Source: Candidatus Nezhaarchaeota archaeon WYZ-LMO8 (GTDB lineage: Archaea; Thermoproteota; Methanomethylicia; Nezhaarchaeales; WYZ-LMO8). From it: a stretch of 38,013 nucleotides of DNA. The DNA is taken from assembly GCA_004347965.1 (NCBI GenBank), contig QNVF01000008.1, forward strand, positions 1-38,013, written 5' to 3'. Position numbers and translations under genes: made by a program. This document shows positions 1 through 24,733 of this stretch, piece by piece; position 1 is the first letter of the stretch; the number at the start of each line of letters is the position of its first letter. The notes below the pieces were generated by a model that saw only the letters and a program-made list of their open reading frames with translations, made no database searches and was not told the DNA's origin.

Positions 1-1683
1 AGCTGAAGTCCTATTAGCGCCCAGCGCGGTGTTAATAGCGTACGAGGTAAGCCGATAGGTGTCACCACCTAGAATAGCATCTGTTGGAGGCACGTTGTAC
101 ACGAAACATGGAAGGCCATCAGGGTACTTAACCACTATCCTCCCATCAACGCCAGTACCAACAACTATGTCCCTTGTCACACCGAGAGTGAAGGACGCTG
201 CAGGAGCAATCGTCGAGTTGACGAGATTGCCCAAGTTATCCCAGACCTCAACACCCATCCCGCTATAGAAGCCCGTGAATGTGATAGTCCTAGGATCTAG
301 CGTGGACACTATGAAGTCCTCGAACCTAAACCACGTACCAGTATCTATCGTCACGCCAGCGTACGCCGGGGTGAACCTCGTTCCTCCTGTGTCGCTAGCT
401 GATAACGTGGCTACTAGAGACCCCGTATCATCATATATCCACAGCGAGAAGTTGACGGCAGTAGTGGTTACAATATAGTTGAGGACCAAGGTGTACCATC
501 TAGTGGCACTGTAACCTGGAACCGACGTCGACCCAATAGGTCTCCATGCCCCGTCATACTTGTATATAGTGGCTGTGCTTCGCACTGATATCTCGTAAAG
601 CCGCGTTCTATCTGCGCTGAGCAAACCTATCCCCTTGTAGCCATCTACCCTTTCTGCTCTAACTCTCACTGATACCCAGAGGGATGTGTACCCGTCTATC
701 CTCGTGTTCCAGTAGTACTGGGAGGCCCTCCCTACCCCACCGTCGTTGTCTCTTCCTCTTAGGGCATTCCCCCTAAAGCCTCCACCGGTTGAGAGCTCCC
801 ACACTCCTCCGTAGCTGGTCCATCCTGATACTGGGTATTCTTCGAAGTCTGTGTACGTGATTGCTGTCCTACTGGTTCTATTGAGGATGCAAGTGTAGTT
901 GTGGGGGGAACTATCGAGGACCACTGGTGGTGGAGTTGGGATTACTGAGAGCGAGCTTGGATTGTAGGCGAAGACTGATGCGCCTGTGTAGAGGAGTGCT
1001 GCTATCAAGACTATTGAAGTGAGCGTTTGAGCTCTTAGAAGTGTTTTCACTAGCAAGCTTGGATTCTTAACTTGCACCACGTTGCTGCCATACTTCCAAG
1101 TGGCTAGGATTACGGTGGTTGCTGAGATTATCACTGATGCGTGGAGTGTAAGCCCGATGAGCCACGAGTACGTGTATGCCAGCGCGTTGGCCACGGTCTT
1201 CTCTGCTGTTATGCCAGGGTACTCTATTAGGCCTGCAAGCGTCCTAAACGTGAAGGAGCCCTTGTTAGCGTAGTTCATTATCCTCCCAGCATCCACCTCG
1301 AAGGCCTGTAGAAGGTACCTTAAAACTCCTGAAGCAACTATAAGTGATAGCGTGGAGCCGAAGACCATGGAGGCTGATGTTAGGGGCCTGCTCCTCATCA
1401 TTGATAGCCCCAAGATCGTTGCCGCTAGCATAAAGATGGAGTGTATGACCATCGTGAGCGAAGCTATGTGGACTACGTCCATGTTTGGGAGGGTGATGAG
1501 CTTGCCGTTAGTGTTGTAGCGTAGCTCGTAGCTTGTGAGCGATATGTATCCATTTATGTAGCCCGTGAAGAATACTTGTGGGTGTAGGAGGATTATCAGG
1601 TAGATTATTGAGATCGTAACTGATAGGATGCCGCTAGCTAAGATGAGCGCGTTGAGCGTCTTGGATGCTCGCTGAGTCTTCAC
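1..1683 (-). CDS. Membrane/secreted protein, partial (>=561 aa, runs off the window): multi-TM N-terminal domain, internal signal-like helix ending ASVFAYN, then a beta-rich extracellular domain
   Basis: Not in the ORF track. Manually read as stop-free from GTG at 1683 to base 1 (MKTQRASKTLNALILASG...LLYTGASVFAYNPSSLSVIPTPPPVV...ALGANRTSA). An alternative in-frame GTG lies at 1050. Confidence 0.8.
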   Translation of the reverse strand, partial: MKTQRASKTLNALILASGILSVTISIIYLIILLHPQVFFTGYINGYISLTSYELRYNTNGKLITLPNMDVVHIASLTMVIHSIFMLAATILGLSMMRSRPLTSASMVFGSTLSLIVASGVLRYLLQAFEVDAGRIMNYANKGSFTFRTLAGLIEYPGITAEKTVANALAYTYSWLIGLTLHASVIISATTVILATWKYGSNVVQVKNPSLLVKTLLRAQTLTSIVLIAALLYTGASVFAYNPSSLSVIPTPPPVVLDSSPHNYTCILNRTSRTAITYTDFEEYPVSGWTSYGGVWELSTGGGFRGNALRGRDNDGGVGRASQYYWNTRIDGYTSLWVSVRVRAERVDGYKGIGLLSADRTRLYEISVRSTATIYKYDGAWRPIGSTSVPGYSATRWYTLVLNYIVTTTAVNFSLWIYDDTGSLVATLSASDTGGTRFTPAYAGVTIDTGTWFRFEDFIVSTLDPRTITFTGFYSGMGVEVWDNLGNLVNSTIAPAASFTLGVTRDIVVGTGVDGRIVVKYPDGLPCFVYNVPPTDAILGGDTYRLTSYAINTALGANRTSA

Positions 1684-1691
1684 TAAGTCTC

Positions 1692-2819
1692 TTAGTACCT
1701 CACAGTTACTTGAGCCCATCTCTCACCGCCAGCCAGCACGTACTTGACTTCAGCGTATGCATATCGACAACCCTCAGGTGGATCTACTAGAACGCTCTCC
1801 CCACCCTCCACCACGATTTGAGTTGAGGTTTGCCTCCATCGCTCTCCAACGCCGTACGCGTACTTGAAGGTTATGTTGACAGCTACTGGGAAGCCGTTCG
1901 GGTTCTTTATTATCAGCGAGCCATTAGAGGCAGCTACGCTTAGAGGCTTGGGGTAGACCTTAATGGTGTAGTTGCCCGTTAGCTTGCCAACGTGGTTTAG
2001 CTGAGCTACTACTTGAACGCTCGTCCATCCTCTCTCCCCTATCCTCCAAGCCAGCTCTCTCGGTATGGTTGCCTTAATCTGCGTTGCGTTTATGGATGCT
2101 TCTACGCGGACACCATCCACGTACAGCTCAGCATCAGTTATCTGGAGGGCCCCCACATAGCTTACAGTTAGGATGCACGTCTCAGCATTCAGCTCCACTC
2201 TAGATAGGTGGACTACTGGAAGCTCGACCTGCATGGTTTGTGGTATTGGCTGCGTGAGGCCGTAGACCATTAAGACGAAGACTATGATCGTGGAGTAGGT
2301 CATAGCTGATGACGCCCCCACAATCCTAGCTCTAGAAACCTCAATAAGAGCTACCGCAACAGCATAAGCGAGGAGGGGTAGCCAAACCTCCCTCTGTACT
2401 ACGTGCGTTACAACCCCCCTCAACATCTTCCTGGAGACTACGAATGGATCGGGAGCTGGGTTCGCATCGCCCTTCGTGATTATGCCGCTACCGTACGGGT
2501 GATCGCCAACATACCTGTGAACAACGTAGAAGCTTGGCGTAAGCGAGTAGACCACCACATCCCCCACAGAAGGCTCAACGCCCACGAACAATGCTAGATC
2601 CCACCTACGTATGGAAGGCTCCATGCTCTCGGAGTAGACTACAACACCACCAAGTGGAGCTGGAAAACCAAGACGAGAAAGCAGCGTGAGCAGAAAGAGG
2701 ACAGTAAAAGCAACTAGAACAGCTCTTGGCAAAACCTTGACTAGAACTTGAGATACGAGCTTAAACACGAAGCCACGGGAGAAAAAAGTTTGTAGATAAG
2801 CCAGCTCATCACCGCTCAC
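1692..2819 (-). CDS. Signal peptidase I (S26, SipW/Sec11-like) with extra TM helices and a C-terminal beta domain
   Basis: YSESMEPSI (catalytic Ser), VVHR (His), ITKGDANPAPDP motif. Confidence 0.85.
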   Translation of the reverse strand: MSGDELAYLQTFFSRGFVFKLVSQVLVKVLPRAVLVAFTVLFLLTLLSRLGFPAPLGGVVVYSESMEPSIRRWDLALFVGVEPSVGDVVVYSLTPSFYVVHRYVGDHPYGSGIITKGDANPAPDPFVVSRKMLRGVVTHVVQREVWLPLLAYAVAVALIEVSRARIVGASSAMTYSTIIVFVLMVYGLTQPIPQTMQVELPVVHLSRVELNAETCILTVSYVGALQITDAELYVDGVRVEASINATQIKATIPRELAWRIGERGWTSVQVVAQLNHVGKLTGNYTIKVYPKPLSVAASNGSLIIKNPNGFPVAVNITFKYAYGVGERWRQTSTQIVVEGGESVLVDPPEGCRYAYAEVKYVLAGGERWAQVTVRY

Positions 2820-2821
2820 CG

Positions 2822-3442
2822 CTACGGCGGAGCCTCAGCAGACGGCGTGTAGACTATGTGCATTTTGAAGATCGCTGACGCACCCTCTATACTACTGCCC
2901 TCTGGTATCCGCACCAAGAAGTCAAACTCCCAAATTGCGCGTTCATGAAGGGATCCTATAAGTGTAGGCGTATCAGTGTCGGTATTTACTAATTCAATCT
3001 TATTGACGTACGTATTACTTGCAGGCTCAGGATTTGGATATCCAATTAAGTTTCTGGTGGCACCACTGCTGTATACTATGAGGTAGACCTTAGATTCAGA
3101 TGGGAGGCTTACTTGCTTTTCACTAATGATCAAATAGACTTTGTACTCCTTAGAGTCACTATTATTTAGGAGCGTTACGTTCTTGTAGTATGTTGTGTTG
3201 TAGGTTGGGTGGATTGAAACTTGTACGCTGGTTTTATTATTGCCCAATGATACACTAATAGTGCCCGTGCCTAGATCAGGCTGACCTGAATTGTTGCCAT
3301 ATTCGAATGTGACCGGAGGGCTGACGGGCGATACCGTTAGCTGGAATGGGTAGTAGGCGAAGACGCTTGCTGCAGCAAATGCTGCTACGATTAGGATTAG
3401 CACCGATGCTAGTACCCCTCTCTCTCCACGGTTTACTACCAC
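2822..3442 (-). CDS. Secreted beta-rich protein, putative fibre/pilin subunit and cognate substrate of the adjacent peptidase
   Basis: Signal peptide ending AAASVFAYY; Ser/Thr/Asn-rich with N-x-S/T sequons; first gene of the operon. Confidence 0.6.
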   Translation of the reverse strand: MVVNRGERGVLASVLILIVAAFAAASVFAYYPFQLTVSPVSPPVTFEYGNNSGQPDLGTGTISVSLGNNKTSVQVSIHPTYNTTYYKNVTLLNNSDSKEYKVYLIISEKQVSLPSESKVYLIVYSSGATRNLIGYPNPEPASNTYVNKIELVNTDTDTPTLIGSLHERAIWEFDFLVRIPEGSSIEGASAIFKMHIVYTPSAEAPP

Positions 3443-4252: not shown

Positions 4253-4980
4253 ATGGTGGCCGTTAAGGTCTCCAACTTAGTTAAGCGTTTTGGAAGAACT
4301 GTTGTTCTTAAGGGTTTAAGCTTTGACGTCAAGGAGGGAGAGATCTTCGGTCTAGTTGGGCCCAATGGCCTGGGAAAACTACTACGCTCAGAATTTTAGC
4401 CACCCTCCTCGCTCCTTCTGACGGCATTGTCGAGATCTTTGGCTTAAATATAGTGAAGAAGGCCAGTGACGTCAGGAAGATCATTAGCTATTTGCCTGAG
4501 GAAGCAGGGATATATCCTAGGCTTACTGGGCTTGAATACCTTAAGTTCATGGCGAACCTTTACGCCAAGGATCGTGGAGAGGTCGAAGAGATGGTTAACG
4601 AAGGTTTGAAGATAGCCAGCTTAGGTGATAAGATTAGAGAGAAAACCGCGACCTATAGTAAAGGTATGAAGAGAAGGCTCTTGATAGCTAGAGCATTAAT
4701 GGTTAGACCTAAGCTAGCGATTCTTGATGAGCCAACAAGCGGACTCGACGTCCTCCACGCCTATCACGTAAGGAGGATCATAAAGGAATACGTAAAGCAG
4801 CAAGGTTTAACGGTTATTTTGTCAAGCCACAACATGCTTGAAGTAGACTTTCTCTGCGATAGAGTTGCTCTAATACATGATGGTCAAATAGTCGTTGAAG
4901 GTTCTCCGCATGCTCTTAAAGAGACATATGAGGCTAAGAATCTTGAAGAGGTCTTCGCTAAGGTGACTGGACATGGTTAG
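4253..4980 (+). pseudogene. ABC transporter ATP-binding subunit split by a -1 frameshift in Walker A (mutation, sequencing error or recoding)
   Basis: One frame gives [10 protein letters not shown]; the -1 frame continues [10 protein letters not shown]...YSKGMKRR...ILDEPTSGLD...SSHN. Confidence 0.8.
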
Positions 4981-21198: not shown

Positions 21199-23022
21199 GT
21201 GAGTAGCGTAGAGAGTAAGAGGATTAGGTCGCCAATACTTTGCGTACTGGGGCATGTTGACGTTGGGAAGACGCTTCTCCTAGACAAGATTAGAGGTACT
21301 GCAACGATGTTTAGGGAAGTTGGGGCCATGATGCAGCGCTCTTCAGGGGGCGCTGCATGGTAGACCCAACACATTGGAGCTTCTTTCCTGCCTTGGTCTG
21401 CTCTTGAGAAGATATGTGGTCCATTACTTAAGAGTATAAGTGTTGAGATTAAGATACCTGGCTTCTTGGTCATTGATACTCCAGGTCATGAGGTCTTCGT
21501 TAACTTGAGGAGGAGAGGAGGCTCGATAGCTGACATGGCTATTCTGGTTATAGACATCCTTGAAGGGTTTGAGGAGATAACTTATGAGTGTTTGGAGATC
21601 CTGAAGGCTAGGAAGACCCCATTTGTGGTTGCTGCAAACAAGATAGATAAGATACCTGGATGGGTTGAGAACGAGTTTAAGCCTTTCATTGAGACAATAA
21701 AGCTGCAGCCTCCTCACGTTCAAAAGAGGCTTGATGAGCTCGTCTACAACATAGTTGCTAAGTTTGAAGAGTTGGGATTCCAAGCTGATAGATATGATAG
21801 GATAAGGGACTTCACGAGGACTGTAGCTATAATACCTACCAGCGCTAAGACTGGAGAGGGCATACCAGATCTTTTACTTGTCTTAGCTGGCTTATCTCAA
21901 AGATACATGTTAAAGAGGCTCTACGTTGAGGAATCAACGGCTAAGGGGGTAGTGCTTGAGTGCAGGGAGCTACCAGGCTTGGGTACGGTAGCTGACGTGA
22001 TAATCTACGATGGCATATTAAGAAAGGATGACACGATAGTGCTTGGCGGGCTCAAGGATCCCATAGTTACTAAGATCAGAAGCTTACTAATGCCTAAGCC
22101 AATGGATGAGATGAGGGATCCTGAGGATAAGTTCAAGAGCATTGATGAAGTTACGGCAGCTGCTGGTGTGAGGATTGTAGCTCATGGGCTTGATGAAGCC
22201 GTAGCTGGAAGCCCCCTATTTTCAGCGAGAAGTCAAGCTGAGATAGAGATGGCCATAAAGCAGGTATTTGAGGAGATGGCGAAGATCAGGATAACAACAG
22301 ACATCACTGGAGTTGTAGTCAAAGCTGACACACTAGGTTCTCTTGAAGCGCTGGTGCTAAAACTGCAGGAGCATGGCGTTCCGGTAAGGCTTGCTGATGT
22401 AGGTAAGATATCTAAGAGGGATGTGGTGGAAGCCTCCATAACGAGGGAGAAGAACCCGCACTATGGTGTGATTTTGGCGTTCAATGTAGGCATAAACCCT
22501 GATGCCGAACAGGAAGTAGAAAGTAGGGGTATACCGGTCTTCAGGAGCAACGTCATCTACAGGCTGATAGATGAGTACTTAGAATGGACCAAGAAGAGGA
22601 TGGAGGAGGAACGTAGACAGACTCTATCCTCCCTAATACTGCCAGGTAAAGCGCAGATACTAAAGGGCTACGTCTTCAGGAGGAGCGACCCAGCAATAGT
22701 TGGAGTCGAAATATTGACTGGAAGGTTGAGACCAGGATATCCATTAATGAACTCTAAAGGTAGGAGACTCGGTGTGATAATGCAGATACAGGAGCAGAAG
22801 AAGAGTTTAAGTGAGGCTGTAGCTAGACAAGCTGTTGCAATATCGATTAAGGGTGACGTGATAATAGGTAGGCAAGTCGATGAAGGAGATTACATCTACG
22901 TTGACGTACCCCCGGAGCACGTAAGGATATTGAAGGAGAAGTTCTTGGATCAATTATCGAAGGAAGAGCTTGAGCTCCTCGATGAAATAGTTAAAATGAG
23001 AAAAGCTGCTGGTAGATACTAG
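21199..23022 (+). CDS. infB: Translation initiation factor aIF5B (IF-2), two exons: join(21199..21330,21364..23022), 596 aa after splicing
   Basis: [20 protein letters not shown] after removing 33 nt, DTPGHE, NKID, SAKTGEG. Confidence 0.92.
21331..21363 (+). other. Putative 33-nt BHB intron in the aIF5B mRNA
   Basis: GUUGGG/CCCAAC exon helix, AGA bulge, 4-bp GCCA/UGGU helix, UGA bulge, UGCAGCGC/GCGCUGCA intron stem; ends in an in-frame UAG. Confidence 0.88.
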
Positions 23023-23080: not shown

Positions 23081-23452
23081 GTGAAAGTAACGCCCGAGTT
23101 TAAAGTGGTTGTATCTGATCCATCAACTGGAAAAGCTCAGCAAGTAACTGTTAGCGGACCACAAGCAAATGCATTGATAGGTCTCAGGATAGGAGACGAG
23201 GTGGACGGTGCATTGATTGGAGTGCCCGGAGTAAGGCTTGTAATTAAAGGAGGAAGTGATAGAAGCGGAGCTCCTATGAGAGCTGATCTTCCAGGTCCTG
23301 TAAAGCGAAGATTACTGCTAAGTCAGGGTCCAGGATTTAGGCCAACGAGAAAGGGTTTGAGGAAGAGGAAGCTTGTCAGAGGAAACACGGTATCTGAGGA
23401 CATAGTTCAGATTAACATGGTTATAAAGCGTGAGGAGGTTAAGCATGGCTGA
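23081..23452 (+). CDS. rps6e: 30S ribosomal protein S6e
   Basis: [33 protein letters not shown]. Confidence 0.96.
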
Positions 23453-24733
23453 AGAGTGGATGAAGAGACAAGCTGAACTTAACATCGGTACAACGGGTCA
23501 CGTAGATCACGGGAAGACGACCTTGACTTGGGCTCTATCTGGAGTATGGGCTTCGAGACACTCTGAGGAGCTAAGGAGAGGGATAACTATTAAGCTGGGT
23601 TATGCAGATACAATCGTGTTGAAGTGCCCTAAGTGCCCACCTCCACAATGCTACACAACTTATGCCCTATCAGGAAGTACATGTAAGCATTGTGGATCTA
23701 AACTAGAGTTTGTTAGGAAGTACTCATTCGTAGACTGCCCTGGACACGAGATTGCACGCCCATAGCGGGCGTGCAACGTGATATGCTAATGGCTACAATG
23801 CTTGCAGGAGCAACGATGTTCGATGGCGCCATACTGGTAATAGATGCTACGGTTCCATGCCCTCAACCTCAAACGCGAGAGCACTTAAAGGCTCTTGAGA
23901 TAATGGACGTGAAGAACGTAGTAGTAGTGCAGAACAAGATTGAGGTTGTCCCGAAGGAGAAGGTTATAGAGAACTATCGTCAAATAAGGGAGTTTCTAAA
24001 GGACACGATGTTGCACGATGCACCGATAATCCCAATATCTGCGCTTCACAAAGCAAACCTCGACGTCCTAATAGAGACCATTGAGGAGAAGATTCCAACA
24101 CCAAAGAGGGATCCATCGAAACCTCTTAGAGCACTGATAGCTAGGTCCTTCGATGTAAATAGGCCTGGAACCCCTCCACAAGAGCTTAAGGGTGGTGTTT
24201 TGGGTGGATCTATAATTCAAGGAGTGGCCAAAGTTGGTGAGGAGATCGAGATAAGGCCTGGAATTAGAGTGGAGAAGGGTGGAGGAAGAGTCGAGTACGA
24301 GCCTCTATTCACTGAAATAGTTAGTTTAAAGGCTGGCGATGTCGAGGTGGAGGAAGCTAGACCAGGAGGCTTAGTAGGTTTTGGCACTCTCCTAGATCCA
24401 TCACTCACAAAGGCTGATTCTCTCGCAGGTAACATTATAGGCAAGCCGGGCACCCTACCACCAACGTTATCAGATCTTGAGTTGGAGACCTTCCTTTTCG
24501 AGAGAGCAGTAGGCACAGTAGATATGGTGAAGGTTGAAAACATAAGGCCTAATGAGGTCTTAATGATAAATGTTGGTACCACAACAACTCTTGGAGTCGT
24601 GGTTAAGGCGTCTAAGGACGTAGTTTCCATCAGGCTACGAAGACCAGTATGCGCTGAGCCGAAAACTAGAGTGGCTATAAGTCGGCAGATAGCTGGTAGG
24701 TTTAGGTTAATAGGTTATGGGATAATAAGGTAG
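23445..24733 (+). CDS. eif2g: Translation initiation factor 2 gamma subunit, two exons: join(23445..23750,23783..24733), 418 aa after splicing
   Basis: [18 protein letters not shown], Zn knuckle, DCPGHE|MLMATML after removing 32 nt, [14 protein letters not shown]. Confidence 0.92.
23751..23782 (+). other. Putative 32-nt BHB intron in the aIF2-gamma mRNA
   Basis: 4-bp CACG/CGUG helix, AGA and AUA bulges, 10-bp UUGCACGCCC/GGGCGUGCAA stem; contains UAG and shifts the frame. Confidence 0.85.

Follow-up and report, generated by a model that had tools for sequence, protein, structure and literature searches.

Introns in the pre-mRNA of cbf5 were reportedly described in Crenarchaeota by Watanabe in 2002 and by Yoshinari in 2006. 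Here we analyzed an interruption of a different gene, that of the translation-initiation GTPase aIF2-gamma, in a 38,013-nucleotide (nt) stretch of DNA from Candidatus Nezhaarchaeota archaeon WYZ-LMO8 (GenBank assembly GCA_004347965.1, contig QNVF01000008.1, positions 1 to 38,013 of the forward strand; the whole stretch is referred to below as the window), and we propose that the 32-nt insert at positions 23751-23782 is very probably an intron of the bulge-helix-bulge (BHB) type, removed from the aIF2-gamma pre-mRNA by an archaeal splicing endonuclease. In the manner of a cbf5 intron, it interrupts an intact, conserved coding sequence and does so at the same site within one clade.

The cbf5 introns are often relaxed in structure and are cut by hetero-oligomeric EndA (Yokobori 2009, PMC2738675; this and the other papers cited by PMC number are used for the portions of their text that were accessible), and according to the same source their splicing has been reported experimentally. 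A motif is defined as relaxed when it retains the central helix and one intact bulge and the other bulge is disrupted (PMC6379350, PMC12397907). With H for the central helix, B for a bulge, and h and h' for the outer and inner helices, relaxed introns of tRNA genes take the form HBh' or hBH (also 'bulge-helix-loop') and lie at non-canonical positions; the aIF2-gamma insert falls into the same motif class, although its host is an mRNA, which offers no tRNA body to aid positioning. The BHB intron in the 5' untranslated region of HVO_1309 in Haloferax volcanii resembles the predicted aIF2-gamma intron in that the archaeal splicing endonuclease acts on it within an mRNA, but it lies in an untranslated leader, where its removal restores no reading frame (PMC7714728). 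In its accessible part, that 2020 study names only cbf5 as an additional BHB intron reported before HVO_1309; the accessible part of a 2026 review of non-canonical splicing represents archaea by tRNA splicing only (PMC13149111), and that of an Asgard intron preprint of October 2026 covers tRNA genes only. A literature search whose coverage excluded most subscription journals and supplements returned no published intron in aIF2-gamma, aIF5B or Nezhaarchaeota. The aIF2-gamma gene is most likely a new host for an archaeal BHB pre-mRNA intron that would work like the one in cbf5.

As far as the accessible text describes the cbf5 introns, the likeness lies in a short insert within a protein-coding gene, BHB-like and often relaxed, with the same cut rule; in a site at a catalytic motif (the catalytic Asp codon in cbf5, the position directly after the G3 motif in aIF2-gamma); and in a patchy occurrence, limited to certain clades and suggestive of gain and loss. 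The two cases differ in their hosts, which are a pseudouridine synthase gene of Desulfurococcales and Sulfolobales there and a translation-initiation GTPase gene of Nezhaarchaeales here. Splicing is a reported experimental result for cbf5, whereas the aIF2-gamma intron is a prediction from sequence, and the Nezhaarchaeales window is distinguished by two such predicted introns in neighbouring genes.

Predicted Excision of the Insert Restores the aIF2-gamma Reading Frame

In the window, aIF2-gamma is split into two open reading frames (ORFs) on the plus strand: 23430..23765, whose product terminates in ...GHEIARP and whose probable start is ATG 23445, and 23771..24733. The break lies inside the G domain, because the match to the GTP_EFTU profile is divided between the two ORFs, the first covering profile positions 4-80 and the second positions 85-187 together with domain II and eIF2_C. 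The start assigned to exon 1 is also the Met at which the N-terminal fragments of relatives (protein clusters P0121 and P0122) begin. An earlier reading of this DNA, made from the letters and their translations (the sequence-only reading), had placed a 32-nt insert with an in-frame UAG directly after the codons for DCPGHE, and we confirmed its coordinates and frames. The features of the locus are as follows:

23432..23439, plus strand: Shine-Dalgarno-like GAGGAGGT, ahead of the aIF2-gamma start ATG 23445 (20 nt upstream inspected)
23445..23750, plus strand: aIF2-gamma exon 1, 102 codons, from the G1 to the G3 motif, last codons DCPGHE
23745..23748, plus strand: 5' strand CACG of the central helix H, on the exon side within the His-Glu codons, invariant in four of four genomes
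23749..23751, plus strand: 5' three-nucleotide bulge AGA, predicted cut 23750/23751; AAA in loci L001 and L003
23751..23782, plus strand: predicted BHB-type (HBh') mini-intron, 32 nt, directly after the DCPGHE codons of aIF2-gamma
23752..23776, plus strand: inner helix h', a perfect 10-base-pair (bp) stem (23752-61 with 23767-76) and a 5-nt loop AUAGC (23762-66)
23763..23765, plus strand: in-frame TAG stop inside the insert, fifth codon; TAA in the same codon in loci L001-L003
23777..23780, plus strand: 3' strand CGUG of the central helix H, on the intron side
23781..23783, plus strand: 3' splice-site nucleotides AUA, predicted cut 23782/23783; located in an open internal loop instead of a closed bulge
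23783..24733, plus strand: aIF2-gamma exon 2, 316 codons and stop; remaining G domain, domain II and eIF2_C, starting MLMATML

Joining 23445-23750 to 23783-24733 in silico gave 418 codons with a single terminal stop, in agreement with the product length proposed in the sequence-only reading. When the spliced product was aligned with 11 full-length orthologues (411-426 amino acids, aa), there was no gap at the junction, and the product read like the nearest of them. Unspliced, the frame would give a 106-residue fragment ending inside the GTPase domain. The junction itself was read in relatives: a scan of genome contigs returned 39 loci (L001-L039), of which L001-L016 were used, and L017-L039, which are more distant and include several bacterial elongation factor (EF)-like matches, were left out of the junction count. 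All 13 intron-less loci (L004-L016) have His-Glu codons followed by Met-Leu-Met codons, exactly the predicted junction, so the comparison with orthologues that had been named earlier as a means of checking the excision came out in its favor.

Cuts placed in silico two nt 3' of H on each strand yield this same mature sequence; that is, two separate boundary predictions coincide, one derived from structure and the other from restoration of the protein. Excision of 23752-23783 would give an identical product, as the insert and exon 2 both start with A. We prefer 23751-23782 because the cut rule, as predicted for cbf5 introns (PMC2738675), places the cut between the second and third bulge residues.

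A genuinely split gene would also leave two ORFs here: a 106-aa and a ~316-aa polypeptide would be made separately and assemble into working aIF2-gamma. Such genes are known in some archaea, and many assemblies have the two pieces annotated by gene callers as individual proteins (P0001-P0014, P0121-P0122). However, the 3' piece has no Shine-Dalgarno-like motif ahead of ATG 23783 or GTG 23771, unlike the gene starts of aIF2-gamma and aIF5B; the break falls in the core of the GTPase, after G3 and ahead of the switch II helix; and the pieces abut with no residue lost, added or overlapping. Separate synthesis would moreover assign no role to the 27 invariant non-loop bases of the insert (see below) or to its BHB register, and we consider it highly unlikely.

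The Insert Folds as a Relaxed BHB Motif

The minimum-energy fold of positions 23730-23800 (71 nt) had a z-score of -3.16, with 1 of 200 shuffles as stable, and the 39-nt core alone reached -23 kcal/mol (z = -6.18), a stability matched by 0 of 200 shuffles; the core hairpin was kept when folded in a 200-nt context. The elements that the sequence-only reading had described, namely a CACG/CGUG helix with an AGA bulge and a perfect 10-bp stem capped by a 5-nt loop, were all reproduced in the minimum-energy fold, and H consisted of four Watson-Crick pairs in every fold made. That reading had also described two flanking 3-nt bulges, of which only one held: AGA is closed on both sides, whereas AUA lies in a 6 by 4 nt internal loop, a departure from the canonical hBHBh' form. 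Since the 3' cut site is in an open loop and not in a true bulge, the aIF2-gamma motif is of the relaxed HBh' type (4-bp H, bulge AGA, 10-bp h'), with the same arrangement in L001-L003. In this type the intact bulge has 3 nt and adjoins h' (PMC6379350), and the sequence-only reading had likewise classed the motif as relaxed.

To judge how often such motifs arise, we scanned the window for HBh' (H of at least 3 Watson-Crick pairs, inner helix of at least 7 bp with G-U allowed, loop of at most 12 nt; mononucleotide shuffles as background) and obtained 14 matches on the plus strand and 2 on the minus strand, with a shuffle mean of 5.8 per strand. A looser BHB scan was uninformative (235 and 201 matches per strand vs ~230 in shuffles). 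Because even the stricter scan yields chance matches, presence of the motif by itself proves nothing. The only matches with a 10-11-pair inner helix located at an ORF break were the aIF2-gamma site and a site in aIF5B, and the signal above chance is the joint occurrence of strength (10 Watson-Crick pairs), exact position at the gene break, and conservation.

A candidate for the missing outer helix was considered and rejected. Positions 23682-23695 (the C-K-H-C-G codons of exon 1) are complementary at 14 of 14 positions to 23793-23806 (A-T-M-L-A, exon 2), and in the 200-nt fold the intron lies inside the resulting exon-exon helix. Relatives do not conserve this helix (9-12 of 14 pairs in L001-L003 and 7-11 of 14 in intron-less relatives), which is probably fortuitous.

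The Insert Was Seen in One Clade and is Nearly Invariant

Among the 16 loci in which the junction was read, a same-site insert was present in 3 (L001-L003, all Nezhaarchaeales, at 84-87% protein identity) and absent from 13, the latter including a Methanomethylicia record (71% identity) and Thermoprotei, Baldrarchaeota-labelled, Bathyarchaeia and Methanobacteriota records. Protein records point the same way. NCBI labels the nearest aIF2-gamma clusters Candidatus Nezhaarchaeales. At 83-100% identity there are 14 clusters (P0001-P0014), every one of them 313-322 aa long and without exon 1, and most matches with identities of 72% or below have lengths of 375-430 aa. In a midpoint-rooted FastTree phylogeny of the top 60 of 120 listed matches, shown without support values, P0001-P0014 group together as one clade next to a sister group of full-length proteins, a pattern that fits a single intron gain.

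Protein ends from metagenome relatives, where an ORF runs into the insert, also suggest some variation in it. P0122 ends in GHE followed by IACRYGHAT, which implies an insert of ~31 nt, shorter than that of the window, and its back-translation would imply the change of one stem pair from C:G to U:A on both strands. In P0004 and P0012, E replaces D before MLMATML, implying a base change in the loop that holds the 3' splice site. Separately, the four clusters P0046, P0063, P0091 and P0107 (61-64% identity; 313-316 aa), of which one comes from a contig of about 233 kb, have their first residue at MLMATML or shortly behind it; they may represent interruptions of the same site on other branches, or mere gene-calling fragments. 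N-terminal fragments such as P0166 and P0190 are further candidates for such breaks; P0190 resembles a frameshifted read.

The inserts of the four species-level genomes (the window and L001-L003) are 32, 35, 32 and 33 nt long (2, 2, 2 and 0 modulo 3), and each has an in-frame stop at codon 5. The loop (AUAGC, AUAAAAAC, AUAAU and AUAAAC; 5-8 nt) is the sole difference among them, all 27 non-loop positions being identical. Over 300 + 300 nt of flanking exon in the same genomes, third codon positions varied at 151 of 200 sites (73-78 of 100) and fourfold-degenerate positions at 69 of 78, and codon positions 1 and 2 varied in 8-17 of 100 columns. As positions 1 and 2 vary far less than position 3, both exons are under purifying selection. 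The insert is far more conserved than neutral sites of these genomes, whose synonymous positions are close to saturation.

These data bear on the possibility that the insert arose as an error of sequencing or assembly, or that the gene is a pseudogene. Errors or decay do occur in this assembly, as an apparent 1-nt frameshift in an ABC-transporter ATPase gene of the window indicates. For aIF2-gamma, however, the same-site insert recurs in three further, separately deposited genome records (L001-L003), the same break appears in 14 protein clusters, the exons are otherwise intact under purifying selection and the insert itself is conserved, which makes such an origin extremely improbable and upholds the earlier statement that an otherwise intact gene argues against a pseudogene.

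They bear equally on translational recoding, in which ribosomes would pass the insert by frameshifting, stop readthrough or hopping and the RNA would never be cut. The frame of exon 2 is open backwards through the insert (ORF 23771..24733), and a stable hairpin just after the possible take-off site resembles the signals of known bypassing elements. Yet no single rule would serve all four genomes, given that a frameshift would be required for the inserts of 32, 35 and 32 nt and readthrough of TAA for that of 33 nt. The insert is preceded by GAG or GAA and the point of resumption by GAT, so there is no matched take-off and landing pair; readthrough would add ~11 residues in switch II, where the 11 full-length orthologues align without a gap; and the exact BHB register of the hairpin would be left unexplained. 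We regard recoding as very improbable, and an intron excised from the RNA as the better account of the same features.

An origin of the insert as a dispersed repeat or mobile element was considered as well and found no support, in that the two arms of the stem were found as a pair at no other site in the 403 kb examined; the 10-nt arms were found only at the insert site in the window and L001-L003, apart from one arm that occurs once more in the unrelated bacterial locus L039.

A Companion Insert in aIF5B Has a Canonical, Covarying BHB Motif

The sequence-only reading had counted the aIF2-gamma insert as the second intron of this region, and aIF5B, 2.4 kb upstream, indeed has a canonical BHB insert. 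Its features and the corresponding inserts of relatives are:

21199 (GTG) to 23022, plus strand: aIF5B, 2.4 kb upstream of aIF2-gamma
21331-21363, plus strand: aIF5B insert, 33 nt, between the codons for ...EVGAM and TQHIGA..., with in-frame TAG
L001, 2546-2575: aIF5B insert
L002, 2547-2575: aIF5B insert
L003, 2549-2578: aIF5B insert
L004, 2579-2607: aIF5B insert
L005, 2377-2409: aIF5B insert
L014, 2326-2358: aIF5B insert

This insert folds as a full hBHBh' motif (z = -4.13) with an outer helix GUUGGG/CCCAAC (6 bp), H GCCA/UGGU, closed bulges UGA and AGA, and an inner helix of 8-11 bp, and its excision leaves an uninterrupted reading frame of 596 aa. Among the 21 loci holding both parts of the gene, 6 have an insert of 29-33 nt at the same boundary and 15 are contiguous. 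The carriers are L001-L003 (Nezhaarchaeales), L004 (Methanomethylicia), L005 (labelled Baldrarchaeota) and L014 (labelled 'uncultured archaeon' and resembling L005), and the last three carry the aIF5B intron but not that of aIF2-gamma. Compensatory changes were present in 9 of 20 pairs of a 7-sequence alignment, which provides strong comparative evidence that protein-coding genes of these lineages contain BHB introns. The reading of the aIF2-gamma insert as an intron becomes more credible because its aIF5B counterpart covaries.

The two predicted introns share genome, operon neighbourhood, size class, an in-frame stop and a site at a G-motif of a translational GTPase. They differ in that the aIF5B intron is canonical, more widely spread and covarying, whereas that of aIF2-gamma is without an outer helix, seen in one clade only and invariant. 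In the same genomes, 6 of 25 terminal positions of the aIF5B intron vary (first 10 nt and last 15 nt). A constraint on the fold alone would leave room for compensatory changes. Since the aIF2-gamma helices are invariant while the aIF5B intron drifts and compensates, the aIF2-gamma sequence itself, beyond its fold, may be under selection, making the insert more than a tolerated intron; we hold this to be doubtful. If true, constraint at the sequence level would fit a dedicated protein that recognizes the intron, or an excised, possibly circular 32-nt RNA acting in trans. Jointly with the aIF5B intron, such an insert would put the production of two initiation GTPases under the control of the tRNA-splicing machinery and so tie translation initiation to the capacity for RNA processing.

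Proposed Processing and Points Against It

In the proposed pathway, the exon CACG would pair with the CGUG near the 3' end of the insert to form the HBh' motif in the transcript, the tRNA-splicing endonuclease EndA would cut at G23750/A23751 and at U23782/A23783, two nt past H on each strand, and an RtcB-type ligase would join the exons into the 418-codon mRNA. The cleaving enzyme would probably be a broad-specificity form, as the 3' site is outside a proper bulge. This agrees with the link drawn in the sequence-only reading between relaxed motifs and EndA of the (alpha-beta)2 or epsilon2 type, for which the accessible parts of PMC5829648, PMC2738675 and PMC12397907 speak. The intron would go back to a single gain in the ancestor of a Nezhaarchaeales subclade, and strong selection would have kept it since. 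The tRNA introns of this lineage could not be used to judge endonuclease specificity, because ARAGORN found no tRNA genes in the window, L001-L005 or L014.

Several observations weigh against such processing. The outer helix on the exon side, which the sequence-only reading had rightly called imperfect, consists of the one pair A44-U84 (last two digits of the coordinates), next to which G faces G, and the four-sequence consensus contains no conserved outer helix h that would make the motif canonical. Endonucleases of strict specificity are not expected to cut the 3' site. Nothing obvious holds the exons together, because the 14-bp exon-exon helix is not conserved. All 14 pairs of H and h' are invariant and show no covariation among the four DNA sequences, so the aIF2-gamma structure rests on invariance and thermodynamics and not on compensatory change; the sole compensatory change is the one deduced from the protein tail of P0122. 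Lastly, no EndA or RtcB domain was found among the 44 ORFs scanned, all of them from the window.

Implications for Archaeal Splicing and Annotation

Endonuclease-type introns in archaeal coding sequences are represented by one gene, cbf5, in the literature that we found. Introns in aIF2-gamma and aIF5B would mean that this splicing route serves other essential genes and extends beyond the classical Crenarchaeota to further lineages. Such introns can be overlooked systematically, given that gene callers report fragments in 14 of 14 close protein clusters, and fragment calls distort both marker-gene annotation and estimates of completeness. The same operon region would offer two natural mRNA substrates, a canonical and a relaxed one, for studies of endonuclease specificity, and their positions raise the question of why such introns occupy codons of catalytic motifs.

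Neighboring Genes and Other Features of the Window

Both interrupted genes belong to a typical archaeal translation gene cluster (L7Ae, NDK, aIF5B, S6e, aIF2-gamma, a PIN protein, an RpoE'-like protein, S24e and Kae1/Bud32), upstream of which the window holds ribosomal protein genes and the genes for RpoD, enolase and GluRS. No Rfam family matched at gathering thresholds when the entire window was scanned. Three consecutive large ORFs occupy the minus strand at 1-3442 (573 aa, open-ended; 375 aa; 206 aa), with no match to a Pfam family at E <= 1e-5. In the ABC-transporter ATPase gene (4253-4980), the frame changes in the Walker A motif near 4358-4379, after ...GLVGPNG; this change resembles a 1-nt frameshift, with no BHB motif at the break, and may reflect an assembly error or gene decay.

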